From Thermoanaerobaculia bacterium (GTDB lineage: Bacteria > Acidobacteriota > Thermoanaerobaculia > Multivoradales > UBA5704), in assembly GCA_035556715.1 (NCBI GenBank), contig DATMER010000074.1:3737-67736 (forward strand): 64,000 nucleotides of DNA, written 5' to 3'. This document shows positions 1,952 to 45,002 of the stretch, piece by piece. Both the position numbers and the translations under genes were made by a program. Below the pieces are notes generated by a model. The model was not told the origin of the DNA. It saw only the letters and a list, made by a program, of their open reading frames with translations, and did not search any database. Numbering within the stretch: the first letter of the stretch is position 1; each line of letters opens with the position of its first letter.

Positions 1952-4438
1952 CTACCAGACCGCCTCCCCCTCCCGCTTCGGCGCCCAGGCGAGGGTGAGG
2001 GCCCGCACCTCGATGTCCTGGCGCCGGGGCTTCAGGCCCAGGACCTCCAGCTCCTCGGCCTCGGGGTCCAGACGCTGCTCCAGGCGCTCGATCTCGGTCT
2101 CCAGCTCGGCATTCAGGTCCGTGAGCTTCTTCTTCACGGACTCGATGGTCTCCTCGGCGTGCGCCACGTCCTTGCGCTCCTGCATGGTCCTGCTCACGCC
2201 GCGCATCGCGCTGCCCGCCCGGCTGATATTGCCGTAGCTCAGCGTCTTGCGGCCGAAGAGCGCTCCCATGACCGCGGTGCCGGCGGAGATCACGGTGCTC
2301 CAGGTCTGGCTCGACGCCTGGGCCTCCTGCTTCTCCCGCGCCTGCTCGGCGCGGCGCAGGCGCTCCTCCAGTTGCGCCACCTTGGGACCGTGCTTGCGGC
2401 GCAGCGCCTCGACCTGGGCGTCGCGCCGCTCCCGCGCGAGGTCGCCCAGCCGGATGCGGAAATCGCGCTCGGTCTCGCCGGGCTGCGACAGCGCGCCGAA
2501 GTTGACGCTGCGGAAGACTTCCAGCCGCCGCGTGCGGTAGAGGGAGTCCTCCAGCCCCTTGCGCCAGCCGTCGTAGCTGCGCGCCCGCGCCGCCGGAGCG
2601 GGCAGCGGGCAGAAACGCGCTCCGGGGACCGGCTCCCGCTCCAGCGACTCCTTCTCCACCTCGACCGGCTCGGCCGCGTACCAGTCGACGTCCCCGGCCC
2701 CGGCGAGCGGCGCCAGCAGGAAGAGGTCCTCGGCATGGTCGATTCCCGTCTTCGGCTCCACGTAATGGACGGTCGCGGCGGCGTAGAGGTGGGGCTCGTA
2801 GACCACGCCGTCCGGCCGGGTGCGGACCGGCAGGTAGCTCTGCGGGATATCCGGTGGGAGCACGGGCGGCAGGCCGGCCTGCCCGTCCGAGGGGCGCGGC
2901 GCGGCGGGCGCGACCGCCGCGGCGGCCGGAGCGGTCGACGCCGCCGCTGCCTGCGGAGTGACACCCGCGGTGGGACCCTGGGAGGTCACGCGGCCAGCGG
3001 GCAATGCCTGCTTGCGCGGATCCATCAGACGCTTGAGCTCGGGCCGGGTGAGCGGGCCGCGCAGGTAGGACATGGCCCAGCGCGTCTGGAACACGGCCGG
3101 CGCCTCCTCGTGCACGTCGTGCAGGAAGAAGACCCGCTTGTCGAGCCTGGAGAGGATCTCCTCGATCCGCTTGCGGTCGAAGGTCCCGCCGGCCGCGGCT
3201 CCTTCCAATCCGTCCAGGAGGCGCTGCTTGTCGCGCTCGGTCTGCAGGCGTCCCAGGAACCAGGTGCCGACGTTGCCGAGCCCCTTGTAGTCGATGTCCA
3301 CCGGGTTCTGGGTGGCGAGCACGAGCCCGAGGCCGAACGCGCGCGCCTGCTTGAGGAGGGTCAGGAGCGGTCTCTTCGACGGCGGCTCCGCGACCGGCGG
3401 CATGAAGCCGAAGACCTCGTCCATGCAGAGGATCGCCCGCAGGCTGCTCGTGCCCGGACGGCTGCGCGCCCAGCCGAGCGTCTGGTTGAGCAGCAGGGAG
3501 ACGAAGAACATGCGCTCGCGATCCGAGAGGTGGGCGATCGAGAAGATCGAGACCCGCGGCTTGCCCGAAGGGGTGTAGAGCAGGCGGTCGACGTCCAGCG
3601 GCTCGCCGTGGAGCCAGGCCCCGAAGCCGGGCGAGCCGAGCAGGTTGTTCACCGCCATGGCCAGCTCGAAGCGCTCCTTGGCGGGATAGAACGACTCCAG
3701 GTCCATGACGCCGATGCGCTCCACCGGCGGCTTCTGGATCTGCTGGATGAGCGCCGCCAGGTCGAGCCCCTTCCCCTGCCGCCAGGCCGCGTCGAAGATC
3801 GTGGCCATCAGGATCGAGTCCCGCCCGCGGACCGGATCGGAGTCGATCCCCAGCAGCGAGAGCAGGCTCGCCACCAGGGTGGTGACCCGCTCGCGCAGGA
3901 GGTCGCCGTCCTCCACGATCCCGGGCGGCGGCGCGTCGAGCGAGGAGAGGATGGAAACCGGCAGCCCGGCCTCGCTGCCGGGGGTGTAGACGGCGAAGTC
4001 CGCGACCTCCTTCAAGCGCGCGATGCGCTCGCCGCTCTGCCCCCACCGTGCGAGCCCCTCGCGCCAGGTCTCGGCCTCCTTGGCCGCGAACGCCTCCGGC
4101 GTGAGCCCGGCGCGGGCGGCGGCGTTCGGGTCGATCCACGGCGCGAAGTCGGCCGGCCGCAGCTCCGGGAAGGTCAGGAGGAGGTTGGCCAGGTCCCCCT
4201 TGGGATCGATGACCAGCGCGGGGATGCGGTCGATCGCGGCCTCCTCGATCAGGGAGATCAGGAGCCCGGTCTTGCCGCTGCCGGTCATGCCGACGCAGAC
4301 CGCGTGGGTCAGCAGGTCGCGAGAATCGTAGAGGAGCGGGGTGGTTGACGCTTCCCCGCGCTGCAGGTCGAAGGGCCGTCCCAGGTAGAACGCCCCGAGC
4401 TTTTCGTATGCCGCGATGTCTTCCGCCATGGGCGGCAT
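1952..4438 (-). CDS. HerA-like / DUF853-DUF87 P-loop ATPase with C-terminal coiled coil
   Basis: Walker A VCVGMTGSGKTGLL; Walker B region LCMDEVFGF; the LVLATQNPVDIDYKGLGNVGTWFLGRLQTERDK segment is typical of the HerA/FtsK-like AAA family; coiled-coil tail (EIERLEQRL). Confidence 0.75.
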   Translation of the reverse strand: MPPMAEDIAAYEKLGAFYLGRPFDLQRGEASTTPLLYDSRDLLTHAVCVGMTGSGKTGLLISLIEEAAIDRIPALVIDPKGDLANLLLTFPELRPADFAPWIDPNAAARAGLTPEAFAAKEAETWREGLARWGQSGERIARLKEVADFAVYTPGSEAGLPVSILSSLDAPPPGIVEDGDLLRERVTTLVASLLSLLGIDSDPVRGRDSILMATIFDAAWRQGKGLDLAALIQQIQKPPVERIGVMDLESFYPAKERFELAMAVNNLLGSPGFGAWLHGEPLDVDRLLYTPSGKPRVSIFSIAHLSDRERMFFVSLLLNQTLGWARSRPGTSSLRAILCMDEVFGFMPPVAEPPSKRPLLTLLKQARAFGLGLVLATQNPVDIDYKGLGNVGTWFLGRLQTERDKQRLLDGLEGAAAGGTFDRKRIEEILSRLDKRVFFLHDVHEEAPAVFQTRWAMSYLRGPLTRPELKRLMDPRKQALPAGRVTSQGPTAGVTPQAAAASTAPAAAAVAPAAPRPSDGQAGLPPVLPPDIPQSYLPVRTRPDGVVYEPHLYAAATVHYVEPKTGIDHAEDLFLLAPLAGAGDVDWYAAEPVEVEKESLEREPVPGARFCPLPAPAARARSYDGWRKGLEDSLYRTRRLEVFRSVNFGALSQPGETERDFRIRLGDLARERRDAQVEALRRKHGPKVAQLEERLRRAEQAREKQEAQASSQTWSTVISAGTAVMGALFGRKTLSYGNISRAGSAMRGVSRTMQERKDVAHAEETIESVKKKLTDLNAELETEIERLEQRLDPEAEELEVLGLKPRRQDIEVRALTLAWAPKREGEAVW

Positions 4439-4439
4439 C

Positions 4440-5654
4440 CTACCAAGCGCGGGGGTCGAGCGCGTAGGGCAGCGGCGTCAAATTCTCGAGCCCGCCCGGC
4501 CCCAGGTGAACCAGGTCTTCCAGCCTCACTCCGTACTTCTCGGCGGGCTCGTACAGGCCGGGCTCCAGGGTGAAGACATCCCCCTCGCGGAGGACCCCTT
4601 CGGCTCCCGAGACCTTGCGGAAGACCGGCTGCTCGTGGAGGTCGAAGCCCACGCCATGGCCGAGATTGTGGACATAGCCGCGGATCGTCCTGGGATCGGA
4701 GATCGGAGTCGGGAACCCCTCGGACTCGAAAAAGGCGCAGACCTCCTCCTGGAGATCCCAGCCGCGGACGCCCGGCTTTGCCCTGCCGTGCGACTGCTCG
4801 AGAGCTGCGAGGACGAGAGCATGGGCGCGGCGCAGGGCCGGCGACGGCTCGCCGACGCAGAACGTCCGGGTACAGTCAGCGAACATCGCGCCTTTCGAGT
4901 AGATGTCCACGACGATCGGCTCTCCCGCCCGGAGCACGCGCTCCTGCGTGCCGGCCGAATGGGGCACGCCCCCCTCCTCCGCCGGCGCGACGATGTTGCC
5001 CTTGGGCTGTTCCAGACCGCGGGCGGCGAGGGCCTGCCCGATCTCGGAGCGCAGGCGGGCGACCGTCAGCCGCTCGCCTTCAATCCAGAGCTCGCCCTCC
5101 CGGACCGCGGCAGCGGCGAGGCGGACCGCCACCCGGCGCATCGCATCCATCACCCCCTTGGCGGCGGTGCGGATCGCGGCCACCTCGGCCGACGTCTTCT
5201 TCTTGCGCACGGCGAGGACGATCGGGTTGCCGGGCACCCAGGTCCAGCCCTTGCGGGCCAAGGCGGCGGTGGCAGCCTGGATGAGCCCGGCCTGGCCGTG
5301 GCCGGCGAGGGCGACGCGGCCCGGAGCGACTCCGGCCGTTCCCAGAGCCCGCTCTGCCACCCAGGCCATGACGTCGCCGGGCTCGGCGGCCAGGTTCTGC
5401 CACCGTGCCATGTCCAGGTGCTCGGGGGTGATCAGGCGGAGGCCGGTCGCCGCCGCCTCGTCCCGCTCCATGGGAGTCTGGTAGGCGAGGCAAGCCGGCC
5501 CCTCGGATGGAACAACGAGCTGGCTGTCGCCGAGGTGAACGTCGCCGACGAAGGGGGCGAGGTCGGGGTCCTGAGAAGACCGGGCAAGGACGAGCAGGGC
5601 ATTGCAGCCCCGCTCCTCCAGCCCGGCTCTCAGCTCAGTAAGGCGGTCCGACAC
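4440..5654 (-). CDS. pepP: M24 family metallopeptidase (Xaa-Pro aminopeptidase/prolidase-like)
   Basis: Pita-bread fold signature HNLGHGVGFDLHE with metal ligands (D, H, E); 1 bp from the neighbouring gene. Confidence 0.85.
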   Translation of the reverse strand: MSDRLTELRAGLEERGCNALLVLARSSQDPDLAPFVGDVHLGDSQLVVPSEGPACLAYQTPMERDEAAATGLRLITPEHLDMARWQNLAAEPGDVMAWVAERALGTAGVAPGRVALAGHGQAGLIQAATAALARKGWTWVPGNPIVLAVRKKKTSAEVAAIRTAAKGVMDAMRRVAVRLAAAAVREGELWIEGERLTVARLRSEIGQALAARGLEQPKGNIVAPAEEGGVPHSAGTQERVLRAGEPIVVDIYSKGAMFADCTRTFCVGEPSPALRRAHALVLAALEQSHGRAKPGVRGWDLQEEVCAFFESEGFPTPISDPRTIRGYVHNLGHGVGFDLHEQPVFRKVSGAEGVLREGDVFTLEPGLYEPAEKYGVRLEDLVHLGPGGLENLTPLPYALDPRAW

Positions 5655-23629: not shown

Positions 23630-23740
23630 GCCCTCCGTTACAACTACAATTGTAAACGCATCTGCCTTTAGCAGCGGGAGCCTGCTGCCTGAGTCGTAAA
23701 TGCCGGAGGCACTCGGGTGGCTGCCCGAGGATTCAGGCCC

Positions 23741-24523
23741 TCACCCCGCGAACCACTTCACCGCCTCCTTAGCAATGTCCGGAGGCACCGTGTGCGGGCC
23801 GTCGAACTCCCGGTAGAGGACATCGTAGCCCGCGTTCTTGAGCTGCGGGACCAGCTTGCGGCTGCAGCGGTCGATAGAGAGCACCTGGTCACCCGTGCCG
23901 TGGGAAACGTAGATCTTCGGCTTCCCCCGCTGGTCCTTCGGCACCATGAAGCCGGGCGAGAGGGCGATCACGTGGCTGAAGAGGTCGCCGTTGGTGATCC
24001 CGATCGAGAGCGCGTAGGAGGCGCCGTCCGAGAAGCCCTCGGCCGCGATGCGCTTCGGGTCCACGGCGCAGCGGGCGAAGGTGTGCTCCAGGGCGCGGTC
24101 GAGGAAGGCGATGTCCGGACCGTAGCCCCCTTCGAGGACGTCCCAGGTCTGCCCCCGGGAGTCCGTGGCCAGGAGGATCAGCCCGGCCTCGTCCGCCAGG
24201 TTCTGGAAGGGTCCCAGGGCGCGGCGGGCGCTCCCTCCCGCGCCGTGCAGCATCACGGCGAGCGGGGCGGGACGGTCCGCCTTGTAGCCCTTGGGCACGT
24301 AGAGGACGCCGTCGCGCCGTCCGCCCAGCCCGAGCTCGTGCAGCCCCGGCTTCGCCTCTTCCATGGGAGCCCCGGGGCGGGCCACGAGCCGCGCTTCGGT
24401 GGCTGTCGATGGCAAGGCATCCCCCTTCTTCTTCGCGTTCTGCGCGTTCTGCGCGGACAGCTGGCGCGCCGCCGCAAGGCCCAGGAACGCCATGGAGAGC
24501 AGCTCGCGCCGAGTCATTTCCAT
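23741..24523 (-). CDS. Secreted alpha/beta-hydrolase (phospholipase/carboxylesterase or PHB-depolymerase-like esterase)
   Basis: Tat/Sec-like signal MEMTRRELLSMAFLGLAAA; nucleophile elbow GFSDGAS; HGTGD His region; 260 aa. Confidence 0.7.
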   Translation of the reverse strand: MEMTRRELLSMAFLGLAAARQLSAQNAQNAKKKGDALPSTATEARLVARPGAPMEEAKPGLHELGLGGRRDGVLYVPKGYKADRPAPLAVMLHGAGGSARRALGPFQNLADEAGLILLATDSRGQTWDVLEGGYGPDIAFLDRALEHTFARCAVDPKRIAAEGFSDGASYALSIGITNGDLFSHVIALSPGFMVPKDQRGKPKIYVSHGTGDQVLSIDRCSRKLVPQLKNAGYDVLYREFDGPHTVPPDIAKEAVKWFAG

Positions 24524-24527
24524 CCCC

Positions 24528-25151
24528 TCATGAGATGAGCCAGAAGCCCCCGAGCATGATCGAGGCCGCCGAGGTGCCTCCGAGGAGGGCCTGGTAGCCC
24601 CGGCTTCCGAAAGCCGCCAGCCGGACGGCCGCGAGCCCCAGGACCGAGGCGAACGCCACCATGGCCATGATCGCACCGAGACCGAAACCGCCCATGTAGG
24701 CCAGCGACGCCGACCGCGAGGGGAGGGCCAGGGCCGGAAAAAGCCCGAGGATGTGCGAGCTGCCGGCCAGGCCGTGGATCCCACCGATCCAGAGCGCCGC
24801 CAAGCCGCTCCGCGGGTGCGCGTGGGCTTCCGCCTCCTCGGTCAGCCGCGGTCCGAACGCCTTGCGCAGTCCCCAGAGCCCCACCGCGATCAGCACCGCT
24901 CCGACCAGCCGCTCGCTCCACGAGGAGACCCGCTCCAGGGGCAGCACATCCCGCAATCCGAGAGCCAGGAGACCGATCAGCCAGACCCCGCCGCTGTGCC
25001 CCAGGCCCCAAAGCAAGCCCGTGCCCCATCCGCTGCGCCGCTCCCCCACCACGAGGGGCGCGACAGCCGAAAGATGGTCCGGCCCCGCGAGGGCGTGAGT
25101 GAGCCCGGCGAGCAGTCCGGCGAGGGTGGCGATCCAGACGCCGTGGTCCAT
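24528..25151 (-). CDS. NicO/UreH-like nickel-cobalt transporter family membrane protein
   Basis: Six predicted TM helices; H-x5-DH (THALAGPDHLSA) and GHSGG motifs. Confidence 0.5.
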   Translation of the reverse strand: MDHGVWIATLAGLLAGLTHALAGPDHLSAVAPLVVGERRSGWGTGLLWGLGHSGGVWLIGLLALGLRDVLPLERVSSWSERLVGAVLIAVGLWGLRKAFGPRLTEEAEAHAHPRSGLAALWIGGIHGLAGSSHILGLFPALALPSRSASLAYMGGFGLGAIMAMVAFASVLGLAAVRLAAFGSRGYQALLGGTSAASIMLGGFWLIS

Positions 25152-25176
25152 GGGGTGGAAAGTCTAGCACCCGGAA

Positions 25177-25343
25177 CCTCACCCCCTGTCCCCCTCTCCC
25201 GTCTCCCACCCCTCCCCCGCCGGGAGAGGGGGAACGTATCTGGGGCCGCCGTGACCGAACGCGAGGCACGACAGCCTCAGTCACGTCCCCCCTCTCCCGG
25301 GGTCGGGCCGGCGGGAGACGGGAGAGGGGGACAGGGGGTGAGG
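25177..25343. repeat. Palindromic repeat family, full copy C
   Basis: CCTCACCCCCTGTCCCCCTCTCCC...GGGAGAGGGGGAACG...CCCCCCTCTCCCGGGG...GGGAGAGGGGGACAGGGGGTGAGG in the divergent region between the NicO-like gene and smc. Confidence 0.7.
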
Positions 25344-25460
25344 TCTCCACTCCCCTACCACATCTTGTGGTCATCTTCCAGACTCGCCCACAGCTTGTAG
25401 GACGGTCCGGCCGTCTGATATCCTGCCCCGCACGGTCGAAACCGCCAGGGCACATCACAC

Positions 25461-28400
25461 ATGCTGAAAGTCAAACGCCTCGAGATTTCCGGATTCAAAT
25501 CGTTCGTCGATCCTGTGCGCGTCGAGTTCGCGGGCGGGATCACGGCCATCGTCGGTCCCAACGGGTGCGGCAAGAGCAACCTGTCGGAAGCCATGACCTG
25601 GGTGCTTGGCGAGCAGAGCGCCAAGTCCCTGCGCGGCGGCACGATGGAGGACGTCATCTTCAACGGCTCCGAGCAAAGGAAGCCCCTCGGCATGGCCGAG
25701 TGCACCCTGACGCTGGAGACCGACTCCTCCTTCCAGGGCGCGGACGGCGGCTGGATGACCATCGGCCGCCGGGTCTTCCGGGGCGGCGAAAGCCAGTACC
25801 GGCTCAACGGCCGGGTCGTGCGCATGAAGGAGATCAAGGACATCCTGATGGACACCGGCCTGGGCATCCGCGCCTACTCGGTGATCGAGCAGGGCAAGAT
25901 CGGGATGATCCTCTCCGGCAAGCCGCAGGAGCGGCGCAAGCTGATCGAGGAGGCCGCGGGCATCACGCGCTACAAGGCGCGCAAGACCGTGGCCGAGGTC
26001 AAGCTCCAGGAGGCCACGGCCAACCTGCTCCGGCTGGACGACGTGATCTCCGAGGTCGAGCGCGCCCTGCGCTCCCTCAAGCGCCAGGCGAGCGCGGCGC
26101 GGCGCTACCAGGAAAAGGAAGTCGAGTACCGCGAGCTGCTGGAGAAGGTCCTCTCCGGCCGCTGGGCCGCCCTCTCCGCCCGTCTGCGCGAGCTGCGCTC
26201 GAAGATCGAGGAGGCCACCACCCGGGAAGCCGGGCTCGCCGCCGACCTGCATCGCGACGAGGCCGCTCTTGCCGAGGGGCGGCAGCGGCTCGACGAGCTG
26301 GCGCGAGCCATGGCCGAGCGGCACCAGAAGGTGGCCGAGCTCGCGGCCACGATCGAAGGACGCCAGGAGTTCCTCAAGGCCAACCGCCAGACCGTCAAGG
26401 AGATCGGCGAGCGGGCCGAGCAGGACCGCGGCATGGCCGAGCGCCGGGAAGCCGAGATCCAGGCCCACGTGGACGCCCTCGAAGCCCTGGAGGAGCGGCG
26501 CCTCGAGCTCGCGGCCGAGCGCGACCTGGCCGCCCAGGCCGTCGAGGCCGACGAACGCCAGATCGCCTCGGCCGAGCGCGACCTGCAGCAGGTGGCCGCC
26601 CGGGTCGAAGCCGTGCGCGGCCAGCTCGCGGCCGCCGTCAACGAGATCAACGCGTTCCGGCAGCGGGTCCAGCAGTCGCAGATCGAACTGGAGCGCGGCA
26701 ACTTCCGGCGCCATCACCTGGACCAGGAGCTGACCCAGCACGCGCACGAGCTCAAGCAGGCCGCCGAGGCCCTGGCCCTCGCTCAGGAGAAAGTGAAGGC
26801 CTCCGACACCGCCCTGACCGGCAAGAGCGCCGACCAGGAGCGCGTCGCCTCCGCCCTGGAAGTGACCCTGCGCCGCGAGGCCGAAGCCTCCGAGCGCAAG
26901 CGGGGCCTGGAGGACCAGCTCTCCGGCTCACGCCAGAGGCAGCGCATCCTGGCCGAGCTATCCCGTGCCCACGCCCAGCGCCGGGCCGCCCTGGAAAAAG
27001 CCCTCGCCGCCGCCGGCCTCGCCGAGCCCGCCTGGCTCGCCGGCCAGGCCAAGGCCCTGGAGGGCTGGGAGCGGAGCCTGGACGTCTATCTCGGCAGCCT
27101 GGCCGATGCGGTGGTCCTGGCGCCGGGCGCCTCGGCCCGCGACCTGGCCCAGGCCCTGGCCGGACGCTCGGCCGCGGTGCTCGTCGAGCGCCGCCCCCCC
27201 TCGGAGGACGAGCACGTCGCGATCGTGGACGATCCAGCCGTGGTCCTCTCCCTGGGAGAGGCCCTGGCCCTCCCCGAAGAGCTGGCCGTGGCCCTGCCGC
27301 CCGCTTTCCTGGTGCGCACCGCGGCTGACGCCGAGCGGCTGGCGCGGCTCCATCCGGGCTTCGCCTTCCTGAGCCGCGAGGGTGTCTGGGTGCAGGCCGG
27401 CACCTTCCACGTCGAGGGCGAGGTGGCGACGCCGGGCGTGCTGGAGCGCGAGAGCGAGCTGGCCGCGTTGGGCAAGTCGATCCCCGACCTGGAGCGCCAG
27501 CTTCGGGAGTCCACCACGGAGCTGGAGCGGCTGGTGGCGGAGCGGGCGAACCTGGCGAGGGAGTCGAACCGGCTGCAAGGAGAAGTCGCGCAGCTCCGGC
27601 AGGAGCTGGCCGTCCACCGCGCCCGCCAGGAGGACGCCGCGACCCGCCACCGGCGCCTCACCTCCGAGCAGGAAACTCTCACGGGAGAGCAGCAGGAGAT
27701 CGCCCGCGAGATCGAGCGCGTGACCCAGCGCCGCCAGCAGCTCCAGGACGAGCTGACCGCCTCCGAGCAGCGCAACGCCTCGCTCCAGGAAGCGTTCGAC
27801 CGCGCCCAGGCAGAGCTCGACGCGTCCAAGGCATCCCGCGAGGCCCTGCGCACCGCGAGCGCCGGCCGGCGCGGCCGCCTGGAGCTGCTCGACGAGCGCC
27901 TGGAGTCGCACGACCGCGAGGAGTCGCGCCTCCGCTCCGAGGTGGATCGCGGCCGGCGGCAGGTCGCCCTCTGGCGCGAGGACGCCAACAAGCTCGCGGC
28001 CCGGCGGCAGGACCTGGAGGCAGCCATCGTCAAGGCCGAACAGGACCTGCAAAGTGCCCTGGAGCGGCGGGCCTCCGCGGAAGAGGGAGTCCTGGAACAG
28101 CAGCAGCGGCTCGACGAGCGGCGCGAAGAGATCCAGGGACTGGACGAGCGCATCCACGAGACCCGCGACCGGCGCGACGCCGTGCGGACCGAGGTCGAGG
28201 AGCACCGCGTCGCCCACGCCGCTCTCCGCCAGGACGCCGAGCACCTGTCCGTGACCTACCACGAGCACTTCGAGAAGCCCCTCCCACCGTCGGAAGAGCT
28301 TCCGGAAGAGCCGCCGGCCGACCTCGCCGAGCTGGAGGCGGAGCTGGCGCGCACCAAGGCCGCGCTGGAGCGGCTCGGGCCGGTAAACCTGCTGGCCGTG

Positions 28401-29000
28401 CAGGAGCACGACGAGCAGGAGGAGCGCTTCCAGTTCCTGACCACCCAGCGCGCCGACGTGGCGAACTCGGTGGACAGCCTGCGCAAGACGATCAAGGAGA
28501 TCAACGAAGCCTCGGGCGAGCGCTTCCAGACCACCTTCCAGGAGGTCAACAAGCACTTCGGAGAGACCTTCGCGAGACTGTTCCGCGGCGGCGAAGCCGA
28601 GATGCGCCTCCTGGACGAGGAGGACATGCTGGAGAGCGGCATCGAGATCCTGGCCCGCCCGCCGGGCAAGCGCCTGCAGAACCTGATGCTGATGTCCGGA
28701 GGCGAGAAGGCGCTGACCGCGATCGCCCTGCTCTTCGCCCTGTTCAAGACGAAGCCGTCGCCCTTCTGCATCCTGGACGAGGTGGACGCGCCGCTCGACG
28801 ACGTGAACACCACCCGTTTCGTGGACGTCCTGCGGGAGATGTCGGGAAGCACCCAGTTCATCGTCATCACCCACAACAAGCTGACCATGGAGGTCGCGGG
28901 CACGCTCTACGGCGTGACCATGGAAGAGAAGGGAGTCTCGAAGCTGGTCTCCGTCCAGATGGAGGAAGTCCAGCCCGAGGAGCAGCGGGCGACGGCTTAG
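25461..29000 (+). CDS. smc: Chromosome segregation protein SMC
   Basis: N-terminal FKSF..GPNGCGKSN Walker A; long coiled coils; hinge; C-terminal LSGGEK signature and ILDEVDAPLD Walker B. Confidence 0.95.
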   Translation: MLKVKRLEISGFKSFVDPVRVEFAGGITAIVGPNGCGKSNLSEAMTWVLGEQSAKSLRGGTMEDVIFNGSEQRKPLGMAECTLTLETDSSFQGADGGWMTIGRRVFRGGESQYRLNGRVVRMKEIKDILMDTGLGIRAYSVIEQGKIGMILSGKPQERRKLIEEAAGITRYKARKTVAEVKLQEATANLLRLDDVISEVERALRSLKRQASAARRYQEKEVEYRELLEKVLSGRWAALSARLRELRSKIEEATTREAGLAADLHRDEAALAEGRQRLDELARAMAERHQKVAELAATIEGRQEFLKANRQTVKEIGERAEQDRGMAERREAEIQAHVDALEALEERRLELAAERDLAAQAVEADERQIASAERDLQQVAARVEAVRGQLAAAVNEINAFRQRVQQSQIELERGNFRRHHLDQELTQHAHELKQAAEALALAQEKVKASDTALTGKSADQERVASALEVTLRREAEASERKRGLEDQLSGSRQRQRILAELSRAHAQRRAALEKALAAAGLAEPAWLAGQAKALEGWERSLDVYLGSLADAVVLAPGASARDLAQALAGRSAAVLVERRPPSEDEHVAIVDDPAVVLSLGEALALPEELAVALPPAFLVRTAADAERLARLHPGFAFLSREGVWVQAGTFHVEGEVATPGVLERESELAALGKSIPDLERQLRESTTELERLVAERANLARESNRLQGEVAQLRQELAVHRARQEDAATRHRRLTSEQETLTGEQQEIAREIERVTQRRQQLQDELTASEQRNASLQEAFDRAQAELDASKASREALRTASAGRRGRLELLDERLESHDREESRLRSEVDRGRRQVALWREDANKLAARRQDLEAAIVKAEQDLQSALERRASAEEGVLEQQQRLDERREEIQGLDERIHETRDRRDAVRTEVEEHRVAHAALRQDAEHLSVTYHEHFEKPLPPSEELPEEPPADLAELEAELARTKAALERLGPVNLLAVQEHDEQEERFQFLTTQRADVANSVDSLRKTIKEINEASGERFQTTFQEVNKHFGETFARLFRGGEAEMRLLDEEDMLESGIEILARPPGKRLQNLMLMSGGEKALTAIALLFALFKTKPSPFCILDEVDAPLDDVNTTRFVDVLREMSGSTQFIVITHNKLTMEVAGTLYGVTMEEKGVSKLVSVQMEEVQPEEQRATA

Positions 29001-29032
29001 TCGTTTTATCCGTTCCTGTGTCTCTCGATTGA

Positions 29033-29057
29033 GCCCGCCGTCCTGGCGGGCTTTTTG
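29033..29057 (+). terminator. Rho-independent terminator after smc
   Basis: GCCCGCCGTCCTGGCGGGC stem-loop followed by TTTTT. Confidence 0.7.
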
Positions 29058-29119
29058 CTTCTCCTTCAAGCATTGTTGTCTGCCGTCCGGATGTCCATCA
29101 GAAAGGAGCGCTCCCCCGC

Positions 29120-29872
29120 ATGAACCGCCTGAGCCCGCTGCTGCTCTGCACCTCCCTGCTCGCTCTCGCTACCCCTGCCGACGCCGCCCATCGCTGCTTC
29201 CCCCAGACGATCCAGTGCGGGGAGACCCGGCAGACCTCGCTCGACGCGTCCGAGTGCTTCATCGACGAGGAGTCCTGGGCCGACTTCTTCACGTTCGCCG
29301 GCCCGGCCGGGCAGTCGGTCACCATCACCATGACCTCGACCGTGTTCACCCCCTCGATCCTCCTCTTCGACCCGCACAACCTGGCGCTGCAGCAGGACGC
29401 CAGCGGCTCGACCCTGACGGTCAACCACGCCCTCGACGAGACCGGGCTCTGGCGCATCGCCGCCACCTCGGCCGAGGCCAAGGAGACGGGCAGCTATACC
29501 ATCACCCTCCAGTGCTCCACCCCGGCGCTGCCGGCCGGCCCTTTCCTGACCACTCCGGAGATCCCCGGCTTCCGCTTCAAGGTCAGGATCGGCGACCGGG
29601 CTGGCGCCAAGCAGGACGAGGACGACTGCCTCGACGAGACACTGTGCATCAGCGGCGCGATCCCGACCCGTACCGAGATCCTGATCCGCGTGATCGGTCC
29701 GAGGCCCAACGGCTTCCTCTGGCCTACGGTGGTCAAGCTCAACACCACCCAGACCGAGGTCTGGATCCAGCAGATCAGCACGGGAGTAACGAAGTACTAC
29801 CTGCTCCCGGGCGCCGGCCCGACCAGCAGCGACCTGCCCGGGTTCTTCGACAGGAACGGTTTCCTGCCGTAA
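29120..29872 (+). CDS. Secreted hypothetical protein
   Basis: Signal peptide MNRLSPLLLCTSLLALATPADA; Cys pairs; no recognised family. Confidence 0.5.
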   Translation: MNRLSPLLLCTSLLALATPADAAHRCFPQTIQCGETRQTSLDASECFIDEESWADFFTFAGPAGQSVTITMTSTVFTPSILLFDPHNLALQQDASGSTLTVNHALDETGLWRIAATSAEAKETGSYTITLQCSTPALPAGPFLTTPEIPGFRFKVRIGDRAGAKQDEDDCLDETLCISGAIPTRTEILIRVIGPRPNGFLWPTVVKLNTTQTEVWIQQISTGVTKYYLLPGAGPTSSDLPGFFDRNGFLP

Positions 29873-29882
29873 GATCCCGTCC

Positions 29883-30398
29883 ATGCGCTGGACCGAACGG
29901 ACGTTCCGCTTCGACCTGCCGGTCGAGATGCTCCCCGTCGTGATTGAGCGCCTGCGCGGCGCGATCCCCCGCATCGAGGACAAGGTGCGGGGGATCCCTC
30001 CCGGGGTCCTCACCCGGAGGGACGGCGACGCCTGGTCGATCCAGGAGCACATCGGCCACCTGCTCGACCTCGACGAGCTGCACCTGGGCCGGCTGGACGA
30101 CTACCTGGCCGGCGCCGAGGTGCTCCGCCCCGCGGACATGGAGAACCGCAAGACCTGGCAGGCCAACCACAACCTGCGGGCAGCCGAATACCTGGTTCAG
30201 CAGTTCCGCCGCGAGCGCGAGAGCTTCGTCGAGCGGCTGGAGACCTGGGACCCCGGGCGCGCCGGCCAGTCCGCCATTCATCCCCGCCTCAAGCAGCCCA
30301 TGCGGGTCATCGACATGGCCTTCTTCGTGGCCGAGCACGACGACCACCATCTGGCTCTCATGACCGGACTGGCGCGCAGGCTCGCTACTTTTCCTTGA
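29883..30398 (+). CDS. DinB/YfiT-like (DinB_2) metal-dependent hydrolase family protein
   Basis: His-rich motifs IQEHIGHLLDLDE and VAEHDDHHL; ~170 aa four-helix-bundle size. Confidence 0.7.
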   Translation: MRWTERTFRFDLPVEMLPVVIERLRGAIPRIEDKVRGIPPGVLTRRDGDAWSIQEHIGHLLDLDELHLGRLDDYLAGAEVLRPADMENRKTWQANHNLRAAEYLVQQFRRERESFVERLETWDPGRAGQSAIHPRLKQPMRVIDMAFFVAEHDDHHLALMTGLARRLATFP

Positions 30399-30516
30399 TC
30401 CCATTCCCCCTCTCCCCAGCCCTCTCCCCCATGCTGGGGGAGAGGGAGATCGCGGAGGAACGGAAGTTGCACCGCCCCGGGCGCGGCCGGCTCAACTCCC
30501 GGCCCGGAGGCGGAAC

Positions 30517-31878
30517 ATGCGCACAAGAATCCCCATCCTGATCCTCCCCCTGCTGCTCGGAGCCTGCACCTACGAGGATGCTACCGACGAACAGCCGAGC
30601 GAGACCCCGGCCGCCCAGCAGCAGTCCCAGGCCCCCCGGTACTCCGTGCCGATCGGCGCTGCCGAGTACGACCCGGCCGCGCTGGAGCAGGGGCGCCGCG
30701 ACCCAGCCTGGAGGCAGTACGCCGAGCGCGACCGCGCGGAGAGGCTCGGGACGGCTCCGGCTCCCCAGGGCACGGCCCAGTCCCCACTGACCCCGGGTAT
30801 GGAGCCCCCTCCCCCGCCGGGAGCCGAGGGCGGATCGACGGCGGGAGCTTTGCCTCCGGGCCGGCGCTCCGGAGAGACCTTCGAGCAGATCTCGCCGGAC
30901 GCGCTGAGCGGCAACCCCGCTCTGCCCCTGGGGCAGGACGGCGGCGGCCCCAGCGTGCTCCGCGCCCAGATCCTCCTGGACCGTGCCCGCTTCTCGCCCG
31001 GCGTCATCGACGGCAACTGGGGAAAGAACACCGAGAAGGCGGTCTACTGGTTCCAGTTCGCCCAGGGCCTGAACACCACCGGCGAGGTGGACCAGGGCAC
31101 CTGGGACGCGCTCGTCCGCACCGCAGGACCTGGCGAGCCCCTCGCCCGGGTCCAGGTGACGCAGGAGGACCTGAAAGGTCCCTTCGTCGATCCCCTGCCC
31201 GACGATCCCTACGAGCAGGCGAAGCTCGAATGCCTCTGCTACAGCTCCCCCCTGGAGCTCTTTGCCGAGCGCGGCCACGCCACGCCCGAGCTGGTCCAGA
31301 AGCTGAATCCACAGGTCGACTTCGCCAGCCTTCAGGCGGGCACCGAGATCGCGCTGCCGAACGTCCCGCAGACCCGGCCGGAGGATGTCCCTTCTCAGAG
31401 TGGAGCCAAGGCAACTCCGGCCGCCAACCGGCCCCCCGCTGAAGGAGGACAGGCCGAGGGAGGACAGATAGCCCGGCTCCTGATCTCCAAGAGGGGCTTC
31501 TACCTGCAGGCCGTGGACGCCCAGGGGCATATCCTCTACCACTTCCCCACCACGCTCGGGTCAAAGTACGACCCCTCGGCGAGCGGCACGCTCCAGCTCA
31601 CCGGCATCTACCCCGAGCCCGACTTCCACTACCAGCCGAAGCTCTTCGCCGACGTGTCCGACGACAAGCCGGAGGCTCATCTCCCTCCGGGGCCGAACTC
31701 CCCGGTCGGCCTGGTGTGGCTCGACCTCTCCAAGCCCCACCACGGCATCCACGGCACGGCCACCCCGGAGACGATCGGCTACACTTCCAGCCACGGCTGC
31801 ATCCGGCTGACGAACTGGGACGCGCTGTTCCTGGCGCGCCACGTCAAGCCGGGCACGCAGGTCGTGTTCAGGGAGTGA
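30517..31878 (+). CDS. Lipoprotein L,D-transpeptidase with peptidoglycan-binding domain
   Basis: Lipobox LLLGAC; PG_binding_1-like GVIDGNWGKNTEKAVYWFQ; YkuD catalytic HGIHGT...SSHGCIRL. Confidence 0.8.
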   Translation: MRTRIPILILPLLLGACTYEDATDEQPSETPAAQQQSQAPRYSVPIGAAEYDPAALEQGRRDPAWRQYAERDRAERLGTAPAPQGTAQSPLTPGMEPPPPPGAEGGSTAGALPPGRRSGETFEQISPDALSGNPALPLGQDGGGPSVLRAQILLDRARFSPGVIDGNWGKNTEKAVYWFQFAQGLNTTGEVDQGTWDALVRTAGPGEPLARVQVTQEDLKGPFVDPLPDDPYEQAKLECLCYSSPLELFAERGHATPELVQKLNPQVDFASLQAGTEIALPNVPQTRPEDVPSQSGAKATPAANRPPAEGGQAEGGQIARLLISKRGFYLQAVDAQGHILYHFPTTLGSKYDPSASGTLQLTGIYPEPDFHYQPKLFADVSDDKPEAHLPPGPNSPVGLVWLDLSKPHHGIHGTATPETIGYTSSHGCIRLTNWDALFLARHVKPGTQVVFRE

Positions 31879-31996
31879 TGGAGGGCTGAGTGGAGCGTGA
31901 AGGGGGCTATGGCGAAGGTCGACGGGCGGACCGCACGCCACACGGCTTCCTATGGGGTGGATTCTTAACTGGACAGTATTTGGGTATAGGCTTCCG

Positions 31997-32342
31997 TATG
32001 ATCCTCATGGCCACCATCGCCCGCCTCACGCCCGAAGAAGCCCACCTCCTCCAGGGCCGCCTGGAGGCCGAGCAGGTCTCCGTGTCCATTCACGAGGATC
32101 ACAATGCCGGGCTCCCGGTAGCAGGCGGCTCCACCGCGGGAGTAAGCCTGGAGGTGCCGGACGAGCAAGCCGGGCGTGCCAGGGAGATCCTGAGGCAGAT
32201 CGCAGAAACCGAGGCGGAAGCCGATACTCCGCAACCCGATCCGGCGCGGCTCGCCTGGCTCCGGTTTGGAGACGGACTCGAGCTTGTCCTCTTCGTCCTG
32301 TTCCTCGCCGCGGCCTGTATCGCTTCTTCGCTTCGTAAGTAG
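31997..32342 (+). CDS. DUF2007-domain protein with C-terminal TM helix
   Basis: IARLTPEEAHLLQGRLEAEQVSVSI matches the DUF2007 beta-alpha pattern; C-terminal hydrophobic helix. Confidence 0.55.
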
Positions 32343-32399
32343 CGCGTCACGGCGATCGAGGGCGTGAAGGGGGGCAGATGGCTACCGGTAAGCCCCGGG

Positions 32400-32725
32400 C
32401 TCCATTATTTTGGATCGAAATTGCCTTCGATCGCTTCGGAATGGAATCCAGCGCATAAAAATCTCATCGAACGCGCTCGTCTCCATTACTATGTACCCGA
32501 TTTCATTTCCGATCCATACGAATGGATCCCATCCCATAAAAACGCCGTCGAAGCCTTAATCTCCATTCCTATGGATCGAAAATGAAATCGGGTCCATCAG
32601 ATTGGACTCGAACGCATAAAGATCCCGCCGAGCGCGATCTTCTCCATTATTATGGATAAAAAGTCATTCGTATCCATCCGAATGGGTTCTGGCGCGTTCC
32701 GCGGGCTGTTTATGCGTCCGAAATG
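32400..32725. repeat. Tandem direct repeats, ~80-81 bp x 4 (plus degenerate extension to ~32870), low-GC
   Basis: Units start CTCCATTAYTWTGGA at 32400, 32481, 32561 and 32643. Shared blocks GAATGGRWYC and CGCATAAARAYC. Located between the convergent DUF2007 gene and the Cys-rich gene. Confidence 0.7.
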
Positions 32726-32873
32726 ACTCTGACGCGCCTGAAGCGACGCCTGGCTGCCCCTCCGGCCTCCTGCCGCTCCGCGAGATCCCGGTTGCGTCCT
32801 GAACCGTTCGGACCGGACCGAATCGATTCGAGCGCGCCCGAATTCATTCCGAGCCGTCCGAAATGCCTTGCGC

Positions 32874-33209
32874 TCAGAGGCAGGTGCCGGCTTCGCAGCG
32901 ATAGCGGATGAAGCCCTGCACCTTGTAGCCGAGGTCGAGGTGATCCCAAGTACAGGCGCTGGTGATCACGAGGGATTGAAAGCAGACCTCATACGTGTTG
33001 CAGTTCACGTAGGGGAGCGCCTTGTCCTGCAGCTTGGCCTCGGCCTCGGCGCAGGAGTAACCCTTGGCCATGAACGTCGGCGTGCTGTACAGGGTGTTGT
33101 CGCAGTAACAGATCGCCTGCGCCTCGCGCGGATTCGCGAGCTCATAGGCCGCGAGCAGGCTCAGGGCGATGGTGGCGAGGGCACCGAGGGAGAGTCGAAA
33201 ACGATTCAT
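32874..33209 (-). CDS. Small secreted cysteine-rich protein (111 aa, 10 Cys)
   Basis: Signal peptide MNRFRLSLGALATIALSLLAAYELA; mature ~85 aa with 10 Cys (ICYCDN, YSCAE, NCNTYEVC, SACTWD, RCEAGTC). Confidence 0.55.
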   Translation of the reverse strand: MNRFRLSLGALATIALSLLAAYELANPREAQAICYCDNTLYSTPTFMAKGYSCAEAEAKLQDKALPYVNCNTYEVCFQSLVITSACTWDHLDLGYKVQGFIRYRCEAGTCL

Positions 33210-33398
33210 TGAAATCCTCCTCATCAGAAATGGTAGATCCAAGTAGTTTAGCAGGATGTAATTATTCTCCGCTAGTCGCCTGACTAGTCGAGGCTTAAGC
33301 GAGCGCGTCCTGTAGGCGTCCTGATTTTCGGGACGCCGGCGGGGAGACCAGGATCTCTGGCGAGCTAAGTAGCTGTGTTTAGGGGAGTTATTGCTTGA

Positions 33399-33479
33399 TG
33401 CCGGAGGCGGGACTCGAACCCGCACGCCTTGCGGCGAGAGATTTTAAGTCTCCTGCGTCTGCCATTCCGCCACTCCGGC
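33399..33479 (-). tRNA. tRNA-Leu (anticodon UAA)
   Basis: GCCGGAG acceptor stem; D-arm; anticodon loop CTTAAAA (UAA); long variable arm CGCC-GCAA-GGCG; T-arm GCGGG-TTCGAGT-CCCGC; discriminator A; CCA not encoded. Confidence 0.85.
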
Positions 33480-44806: not shown

Positions 44807-44832
44807 GGGCGGGAGGATATCGCGAGGGCGGA

Positions 44833-44998
44833 CCTCACCCCCTGTCCCCCTCTCCCATCTCCCACCCGGCCCCCGCCGGGAGAGGGGGAACGTGGCTGAG
44901 GCCATCTTGCCTTCGCTCAGGCACGACTGCCACAGATACGTCCCCCCTCTCCCGGGGAGGGTAGGGCGGGAGATGGGAGAGGGGGACAGGGGGTGAGG
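44833..44998. repeat. Palindromic repeat family, full copy E
   Basis: Near-identical to copy C (CCTCACCCCCTGTCCCCCTCTCCCATCTCCC...GGGAGAGGGGGACAGGGGGTGAGG). Confidence 0.7.
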
Positions 44999-45002
44999 TC
45001 TC

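Follow-up and report, generated by a model that had tools for sequence, protein, structure and literature searches.

A degenerate array of palindromic repeats between convergent genes in Thermoanaerobaculia, probably a member of a lineage-specific non-coding repeat family

The BOX elements of Streptococcus pneumoniae are built as boxA-boxB(n)-boxC, mycobacterial MIRUs carry small ORFs, and sopC of F, a plasmid centromere array, consists of 12 units of 43 bp with an inverted repeat in each. REP and BIME sequences are imperfect palindromes of 20-40 bp that are extragenic, often occur in regular clusters between convergent genes, have hairpin potential on both strands and serve as targets of insertion sequences (PMC2817692, PMC1525189). 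One end of the palindrome of REP units is marked by a conserved tetranucleotide, GTAG or CGTC (PMC3733652), and their copy number is typically >100 per genome (PMC2817692). In the Acidobacteriota, small repeat families are almost undescribed; no paper on them was found in the literature, and Rfam holds no model that matches the repeats described here.

The locus analyzed here lies in a 64-kb stretch of DNA (64,000 nucleotides, termed the window) from a member of the Thermoanaerobaculia. An array of tandem repeats, together with its lead-in and tail, occupies the whole 531-bp intergenic stretch 32343-32873, which is probably a degenerate copy of a lineage-specific, non-coding Thermoanaerobaculia repeat element, most similar to selfish or structural DNA of the REP/BIME type. 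A previous examination of the letters and ORFs alone (the sequence-only reading) had described four AT-rich direct repeats between two convergent genes, and had proposed a repeat-structured small RNA, a decayed repeat-peptide gene or a horizontally acquired remnant. Its description was largely borne out. Four units are present, the first three starting exactly where they had been placed (32400, 32481 and 32561), while the fourth start, given as 32643, is off by one base (CTCCATT occurs at 32642). The flanking genes are indeed convergent, the plus-strand DUF2007 gene ending at 32342 and the minus-strand Cys-rich gene at 32874, and the array is much richer in AT than its surroundings: the GC content of 0.445 at 32400-32599 is the minimum of the entire window, compared with 0.62-0.77 elsewhere.

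Table 1. Features in and around the repeat array (window coordinates; the lead-in is a candidate part of the array).
Feature	Position	Strand	Basis or remarks
Synteny breakpoint	31877..31878		Relatives colinear with window 23735-31876, diverging after
DUF2007 gene, left flank (Pfam PF09413)	31998..32342	+	94-95% DNA identity to contig L131
Lead-in	32343..32399		From DUF2007 stop codon to unit 1; contains …ATGGCTACCGGTAAGCCCCGGGCTCC…
Unit 1, AT-rich 80-bp higher-order repeat	32400..32480		Sequence reading, repeat search
Unit 2, 27-bp centre inverted relative to unit 3	32481..32560		Inverted repeat I1
Unit 3, colinear with family model positions 249 onward as successive ~20-mers (TCAGATTGGACTCGAA, then ATCCCGCCGAGCGCGATCTT)	32561..32641		Family model alignment
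Unit 4, 5' half kept, 3' half an inverted partial unit	32642..32722		Repeats I2, D1
Tail, GC-richer, 20/21-bp palindromic units (CCGAATCGATTCGAG, CCGAATTCATTCCGAG)	32723..32873		Tandem Repeats Finder, nhmmer, local alignment
Cys-rich secreted-protein gene, right flank	32874..33212	-	ORF list; homologues in soil contigs

The units of the array are 80-82 bp in length and share 63-73% identity with each other. A repeat search of the array returned a family (D1) whose copies are spaced 81, 80 and 80 bp apart, and a further one (D2) of 94 nt at 73% identity. Since the copies are merely 63-73% alike, Tandem Repeats Finder missed the 80-bp period and reported only a 20-bp period within the tail (32818-32862). 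The 16-mer CTCCATTAYTATGGAT, with up to 3 mismatches allowed, was matched five times in the 64-kb window, each time within the array, where shuffled sequences would be expected to yield 0.09 matches. Among the blocks that had been described as conserved, CTCCATTAYT is found in all four units, while the GAATGG-like and CGCATAAA-like blocks are found in three of the four. Each unit contains two 14-bp palindromes of the form TCCAT-N4-ATGGA (the window palindrome site, ATCCATACGAATGGAT), situated ~31 bp apart around an asymmetric centre, and the palindrome pair is followed by CGCATAAARAT and then by a GC-rich linker. The palindrome is kept eight times over the units, and ATGGA is their best-kept motif.

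Not all of the units are oriented alike. In 25 of 27 bases, the centre of unit 2 matches the reverse complement of that of unit 3, a far closer match than that between the units overall, and the corresponding inverted repeat (I1) spans 54 nt with 81% complementarity. As the symmetric units can be read for orientation at their centres only, inversion is clear for units 2 and 3 (score 23 versus 5), and the remaining pairs are ambiguous. In the inverted part of unit 4, GTTTATGCG is the reverse complement of CGCATAAAC. The lead-in may represent a degenerate first stretch of the array; it carries no statistical support by itself, and is suspected to belong because a related array, described below, begins right at the stop codon of the same gene. 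No second copy of the array was detected elsewhere in the 64-kb window or in ~37 kb of related loci.

The array has GC-rich relatives. The soil metagenome contig L131 carries a DUF2007 gene with 94-95% DNA identity to that of the window, and the homology ends at the stop codon. At the equivalent place, and directly from the stop codon, L131 contains a tandem array that is rich in GC and shows periods of 21, 42 and 125 bp. The family unit is a 21-mer, GGCTCCGAATCGATTCGGAGCC, with a 16-bp palindrome, TCCGAA-N4-TTCGGA, in which the half-sites are conserved and the central 4 bp variable; the linker alternates between GCCCC and RTGGC. Elsewhere in L131, a structured-looking GC-rich leader (1020-1210) without an Rfam match lies upstream of a gene encoding a LAB_N-domain protein.

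A scan of the JGI metagenomes with the exact pattern GGCTCCGA-N11-GCCCCTYCGRA returned 47 loci, mostly single matches attributable to chance, among which two clear arrays (in contigs L147 and L179) and two weak arrays were recognized. Most of the others, including L178, were discarded as chance matches in coding DNA; an 18/36/72-bp repeat in L167, which is probably coding, was also set aside. The L147 array (~4131-4565) is located between divergently transcribed genes for an S15 peptidase and a DUF998 protein. The L179 array (1780-2018 and 5406-5545) is a single array split by a 3.4-kb IS1-like element. This element (2019-5405) has 20-bp terminal inverted repeats, GGTAGTGGCTCAATTTGACC, and encodes an IS1-like DDE transposase together with an SDH/ClpP-like protease as a passenger gene. 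The arrays of L131, L147 and L179, which are ~400-435 bp long, are colinear over ~400 bp at 77-84% identity, and the flanking genes differ among all three. A protein encoded on L147 is annotated as derived from a Thermoanaerobaculia MAG, and the source of the window is likewise a member of the Thermoanaerobaculia; the family thus appears to be native to this class rather than foreign. The description of the family as dispersed rests on these three contigs.

Several further sequences bear some resemblance to the family. A sister array in L159 (6040-6260) consists of eight units of 21 bp, GGCTCC-CGACCGGTC-CGGAGC, which possess the outer arms of the family around a different core, and a short remnant of two to three units occurs in L168 (2520-2600). 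In L144 (1720-1880), a contig of 34% GC, one family-like unit, GGGGCTTTCGATACATTCGGAGCCAT, adjoins an unrelated AT-rich repeat of 21/42 bp.

The relationship of the window array to this family was assessed at several levels of sensitivity. BLAST of the array against the family returned nothing, and the window remained below significance (E<0.01 was not reached) when the full family model was searched over 1.5 Mb. A profile of the L131 42-mers, run over the 64-kb window, gave its four top matches all within 32661-32881. In local alignments with the three arrays, the AT-rich part scored z of 2.8-7.9 and the tail z of 3.3-8.0, as opposed to -1.0 to 2.7 for flanking controls; the tail, which extends up to the Cys-rich gene, is the part of the array most similar to the GC-rich family. 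When the family model was restricted to the intergenic region, window positions 32585-32722 aligned colinearly with model positions 249-402, so that one 80-bp unit matches four consecutive ~20-mers. The differences between the AT-rich part and the family comprise 25 changes from GC to AT and five from AT to GC, and those of the tail are balanced. On the basis of these weak similarities, namely the concentration of weak matches and the z-scores against shuffled sequences, the window array is taken to be a diverged, AT-shifted member of the family.

The window and L131 arrays differ from each other far beyond the 5% DNA divergence of the adjacent gene, which indicates that either strict orthology between the arrays does not hold or the array changes far more rapidly than neutral DNA. 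The sequence-only reading had named a lack of transcription together with a complete absence of other copies as the outcome that would favour a neutral decayed remnant; related copies do occur, in L131, L147 and L179, none of them being of the AT-rich variant. An exact-pattern scan for the AT-rich unit in 185,579 species representatives, a set that does not include the source genome, yielded two matches (Anaerostipes and Christiangramia), which is approximately the chance rate. In viral contigs, the AT-rich unit gave single chance matches only, in a loose scan, and the family pattern had no match; neither the window array nor that of L147 had a blastn match among plasmids and phages.

The following course of events is proposed for the origin of the window array. 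The better-preserved element comprises ~400-435 bp with roughly 17-20 head-to-tail units of 21 bp, each based on a palindrome of 16-22 bp, (GGC)TCCGAA-N4-TTCGGA(GCC), with the alternation of the two linkers creating the 42-bp and 125-bp higher-order periods. Four such units in the window, originally a block of ~84 bp that now measures 80-82 bp, would have gained changes mainly from GC to AT. The altered block would then have been re-amplified four times, most simply via unequal recombination or slippage, and recombination between the inverted arms of one unit's centre may have flipped that centre. The GC-rich 20/21-bp form of the family would have survived in the 3' tail.

The synteny with relatives ends precisely at the L,D-transpeptidase stop codon, such that everything from the DUF2007 gene through the array to the Cys-rich gene belongs to a lineage-variable segment. 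The transpeptidase of the window is 100% identical to a protein from a 208-kb contig of a TPA Thermoanaerobaculia MAG. The break was seen in comparison with four related loci, in which the transpeptidase is ~81% identical in protein sequence. Past this point the relatives carry a tRNA-Thr(cgt) gene with integrase islands or toxin genes, and the window instead carries the DUF2007 gene, the array, the Cys-rich gene and a tRNA-Leu(taa) gene (33399-33479, minus strand). The islands of the relatives (L006, 7613-12848; L008, 7595 onward; L009, 7453-7527) contain P4-type integrase genes (with D5 primase; AlpA, resolvase and DnaB) or ParE toxin genes.

The DUF2007 gene itself (31982-32337 in the window; also in L131, L132, L135 and L136) forms a sharply bounded island of homology of ~350 bp, with 78-95% DNA identity. 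The island occurs in at least three contexts: after the L,D-transpeptidase gene, after the end of an FKBP-like gene, and after a PMT_2 gene with PTS EI downstream. The last few codons of the gene vary among the copies. The array is absent from all of the more distant DUF2007 homologues (71-76% identity) that were examined.

On the right flank, the Cys-rich gene is part of a cassette of ~400 bp (window ~32861-33253, minus strand; L001, 197-591; L002, 141-530; L003, 214-617), with 87-95% DNA identity in three soil contigs that have three distinct sets of flanking sequences. The cassette includes a 112-aa secreted Cys-rich protein, which has no Pfam family, and its own conserved upstream region (…TGCTAAACTACTTGG…AGGAGGATTTC-ATG). 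In L003, the cassette is flanked by a pair of direct repeats of 83 bp, 89% identical and with 519 bp between them, which duplicate the 3' end of the neighbouring gene. Homology of the cassette stops ~11 nt beyond the Cys-rich stop codon, where the array starts, and the cassette abuts the tail. When the Cys-rich gene was used as an anchor, its four homologues were found in differing flanks, none of which contained the array. It has the appearance of a minute gene cassette that is mobile or has undergone recombination.

Additional elements were observed within the window. A MITE-like palindromic element of ~170 bp occurs twice in the window (25176-25344 and 44830-45000) and once in a related contig (L008, 1647-1786), in all cases in intergenic positions, with terminal inverted repeats ACCTCACCCCCTGTCCCCCTCTCCC / GGGAGAGGGGGACAGGGGGTGAGGT. 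Moreover, an extra ~880 bp (28999-29880) is present between the SMC and DinB genes, which are adjacent to each other in four relatives; this stretch holds a 250-aa ORF (29120-29872, plus strand) with a weak, sub-threshold match to the PPC domain.

In one rival reading, the AT-rich block would simply be foreign DNA left behind by a horizontally acquired element, its likeness to the GC-rich arrays being coincidental. The block has the lowest GC content of the window, it lies in a segment that is absent from the relatives, which have their tRNA-Thr gene and integrase islands after the transpeptidase gene, and a tRNA-Leu gene is situated 530 bp away. However, the similarity to the family is significant for the array and not for its flanks, the differences run from GC to AT, no plasmid, phage or viral relatives were found, and the GC3 of the adjacent DUF2007 gene is normal. 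A foreign origin of the AT-rich block is regarded as very improbable. The tRNA-Leu gene was considered as an integration site and rejected, as no repeat of its 3' end was found. Among the proposals of the sequence-only reading, that of a horizontally acquired or decayed remnant came closest: the stretch is a degenerate copy in a lineage-variable segment, bounded by the break at the end of the L,D-transpeptidase gene, but the repeat family appears native to the class rather than foreign AT-rich DNA, the relatives being GC-rich and at least one of them belonging to the Thermoanaerobaculia. Two other repeat types were rejected. Integron attC arrays have R''/L''…L'/R' boxes, and their palindromes end in RYYYAAC and GTTRRRY; an attC site did not fit, for the outer palindrome ends, as read from the sequence, are CTCCATT…AATGGA with no in-register GTTRRRY core, and a CRISPR was dismissed upon inspection of the sequence.

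The arrangement of the half-sites invites a different interpretation, in which the array would be a cluster of operator-like sites for a dimeric DNA-binding protein and would act as a platform for regulation or titration, or in the manner of a centromere. The protein would recognize the half-sites TCCGA/TCGGA, or TCCAT/ATGGA in the case of the window, which recur every 21 bp, a distance of two helical turns. Their conservation on both sides of a variable centre would fit such a role, as would the eightfold retention of TCCAT-N4-ATGGA in the window units and the near absence of compensatory change, which is expected if the sequence rather than its pairing is read. In L147, moreover, the array lies between divergent genes, near what we read as a promoter-like site (TTGACA-N18-TAGACT). 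On the other hand, no regulator or partition gene is common to the four contexts, which are convergent, tandem and divergent alike; the half-sites are often damaged on one side; the L179 array is interrupted by an insertion sequence, and decay is far advanced in the window copy; and relatives on plasmids or phages are lacking. No rep or par domains were detected in the neighbours that were scanned, so that the linked rep/par genes and the plasmid or phage relatives that characterize iterons and centromeres were not found. Such a cluster of protein-binding sites is nevertheless the main rival of a passive repeat element, because the conserved half-sites, the variable centre and the absence of compensatory change fit it too, although we consider it an unlikely explanation overall. 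A broader version would treat the ~430-bp arrays as functional multi-site platforms that are specific to the Thermoanaerobaculia and load one dimeric protein, either as DNA (titration, insulator or centromere-like) or as RNA (a CsrB-like sponge with ANGGAN loops), with the window as a diverged variant of half-site TCCAT/ATGGA; this version is rather more doubtful.

The 501-nt region folds far better than shuffled sequences on both strands (z of -6.7 and -7.4), as palindrome-rich DNA generally does. The four window units, by comparison, adopt dissimilar folds that are mostly no better than those of shuffled sequences (mostly z above -2.5), and in a consensus fold of the units the covariation term was unfavourable. 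In 50 family units, Watson-Crick pairs were in slight excess over the shuffle control (283 versus 269 ± 6.6), and the mismatches comprised 39 of G-T and 50 of A-C, by which no strand is favoured. Among the orthologous hairpins of the GC-rich relatives, 17 one-sided changes that break a pair were counted versus a single compensatory change, and column variability was higher in the loop (0.35) than in the stem (0.23). A cmscan of the window region and L131 against Rfam, at E up to 10, recovered microRNA-model noise and tRNA only. In a consensus scan, two terminator-like sites were found versus 1.4 expected, and promoter-like sites were not enriched; likewise, attempts to read the units as sigma-54, sigma-70 or intrinsic-terminator signals gave nothing above chance.

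These data bear on the proposal that the array encodes a multi-hairpin non-coding RNA, for example a CsrB/RsmZ-like protein sponge in which alternate hairpins would display an A-N-G-G-A-N loop (RATGGAY). The strong folding of the whole region and the A-type units, with ATGGA at the loop position and ATGGA as the best-kept motif of the window, speak in its favour. The lack of strand preference, the 17:1 ratio of breaks to compensation and the greater variability of the loops argue against it, as do the discordant folds and unfavourable covariation of the window units, in which the GGA sits inside the stems. Neither a covariance-model match nor a compensated structure, the hallmarks of a structured non-coding RNA, was found, and the small RNA suggested by the sequence-only reading is therefore considered very unlikely.

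The coding capacity of the array was also evaluated. The 73-aa plus-strand ORF reported previously does exist (32364-32585) and includes the motifs EWNPAHKN and EWIPSHKN. Three further points could be taken to indicate that the array is what remains of a gene that encoded a secreted heptad-repeat protein, or that the ORF is still translated: the 21-bp unit corresponds to seven codons; an ORF of 44 aa in L131 (857-991, minus strand), which encodes a signal peptide, enters the array from the right and stops inside it; and a search of 1.84 billion representative proteins gave 15 matches to the 73-aa ORF at E up to 1e-3. These matches were judged to be spurious, as they comprise unrelated repeat families (DUF4379, CARDB, Big_13, or none) that share short motifs such as EWxPxKN, and no match for the ORF was found in Pfam. 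Its GC3 is 0.49, compared with 0.77-0.93 in the neighbouring genes. Substitutions among the related arrays are spread evenly over the codon phases (23/22/25), their indels are of 1, 7 and 8 bp, and jumps of 83 bp in spacing bring repeat and reading frame out of register. A protein-coding repeat gene would be expected to show substitutions with three-base periodicity, indels that keep the frame and the GC3 bias of the host; none of these was seen, and the decayed repeat-peptide gene finds no support; we hold this origin, or continued translation of the ORF, to be highly improbable. In the GC-rich copies all six frames remain open throughout, and spurious ORFs are therefore easily called in such arrays.

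The passive repeat element consequently remains the preferred explanation, and the function of the array, if viewed in this light, is probably passive as well. The element would spread or persist at low copy number, tolerating or attracting insertions, with a passive effect on its surroundings. Tolerance of insertions is illustrated by the L179 array, split by its IS1-like element, and by the Cys-rich cassette of the window, which ends exactly at the tail. Apart from the IS inserted in L179, no transposase or other mobilizing gene was linked to the arrays. Being palindromic, the array would place stem-loops at the 3' ends of both convergent transcripts, where they could help termination or mRNA stability; the above-mentioned consensus scan for terminator-like sites lends no support to such a terminator or stabilizer role. 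On present evidence, the window copy is decayed and without a specific function.

The family could mark genome plasticity in Thermoanaerobaculia MAGs and could alert to artefacts of assembly or annotation. The window copy provides an example of how tandem higher-order repeats may arise from a palindromic unit and drift towards AT.

Comparison with the known systems places the arrays closest to REP/BIME clusters, with more limited resemblance to the others. With the CsrB/RsmZ RNAs they share many consecutive hairpins, some with GGA in the loop, but an Rfam match, a promoter or terminator and a strand bias are all missing, and GGA is not the most conserved feature. In common with sopC, they consist of tandem direct repeats with a palindromic site in each unit, which is protein-binding in sopC and only a candidate for such binding here; they differ in having no nearby partition genes or plasmid relatives, in occupying several chromosomal contexts and in including decayed copies. 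Like BOX elements and MIRUs, they are dispersed intergenic elements composed of tandem modules, with a variable number of modules and the potential for secondary structure. There is, however, no sequence similarity to either, and the modules are 21-bp palindromes, with no distinct terminal modules and no MIRU-like small ORFs.

The likeness to REP/BIME sequences is more extensive. The arrays are extragenic, are evenly spaced, have hairpin potential on both strands, are hit by insertion sequences and contain a palindrome of 16-22 bp every 21 bp in the relatives and TCCAT-N4-ATGGA in the window, and the two alternating types of unit and linker, together with the flipped centre of unit 2 versus unit 3, recall the alternating orientation within BIMEs. 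In contrast to REP units, they bear no in-register GTAG or CGTC tag, the units starting with GGCTCC/CCCCTT in the family and with CTCCAT in the window. The copy number of the array looks low (a single array in the 64-kb window, with ~37 kb of related loci containing none), and no RAYT-type transposase was seen in the 64 kb of the source genome that were covered. Furthermore, the units follow each other strictly head-to-tail, separated by 5-bp linkers, and the entire ~430-bp array forms one conserved colinear block across sites. The family therefore resembles REP/BIME clusters yet is not a member of that class, since the tag is absent, the copy number is seemingly low and the array travels or persists as a colinear block. 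The preservation of an entire palindrome array of ~20 units, colinear at different genomic places, is unusual for REP-like DNA.
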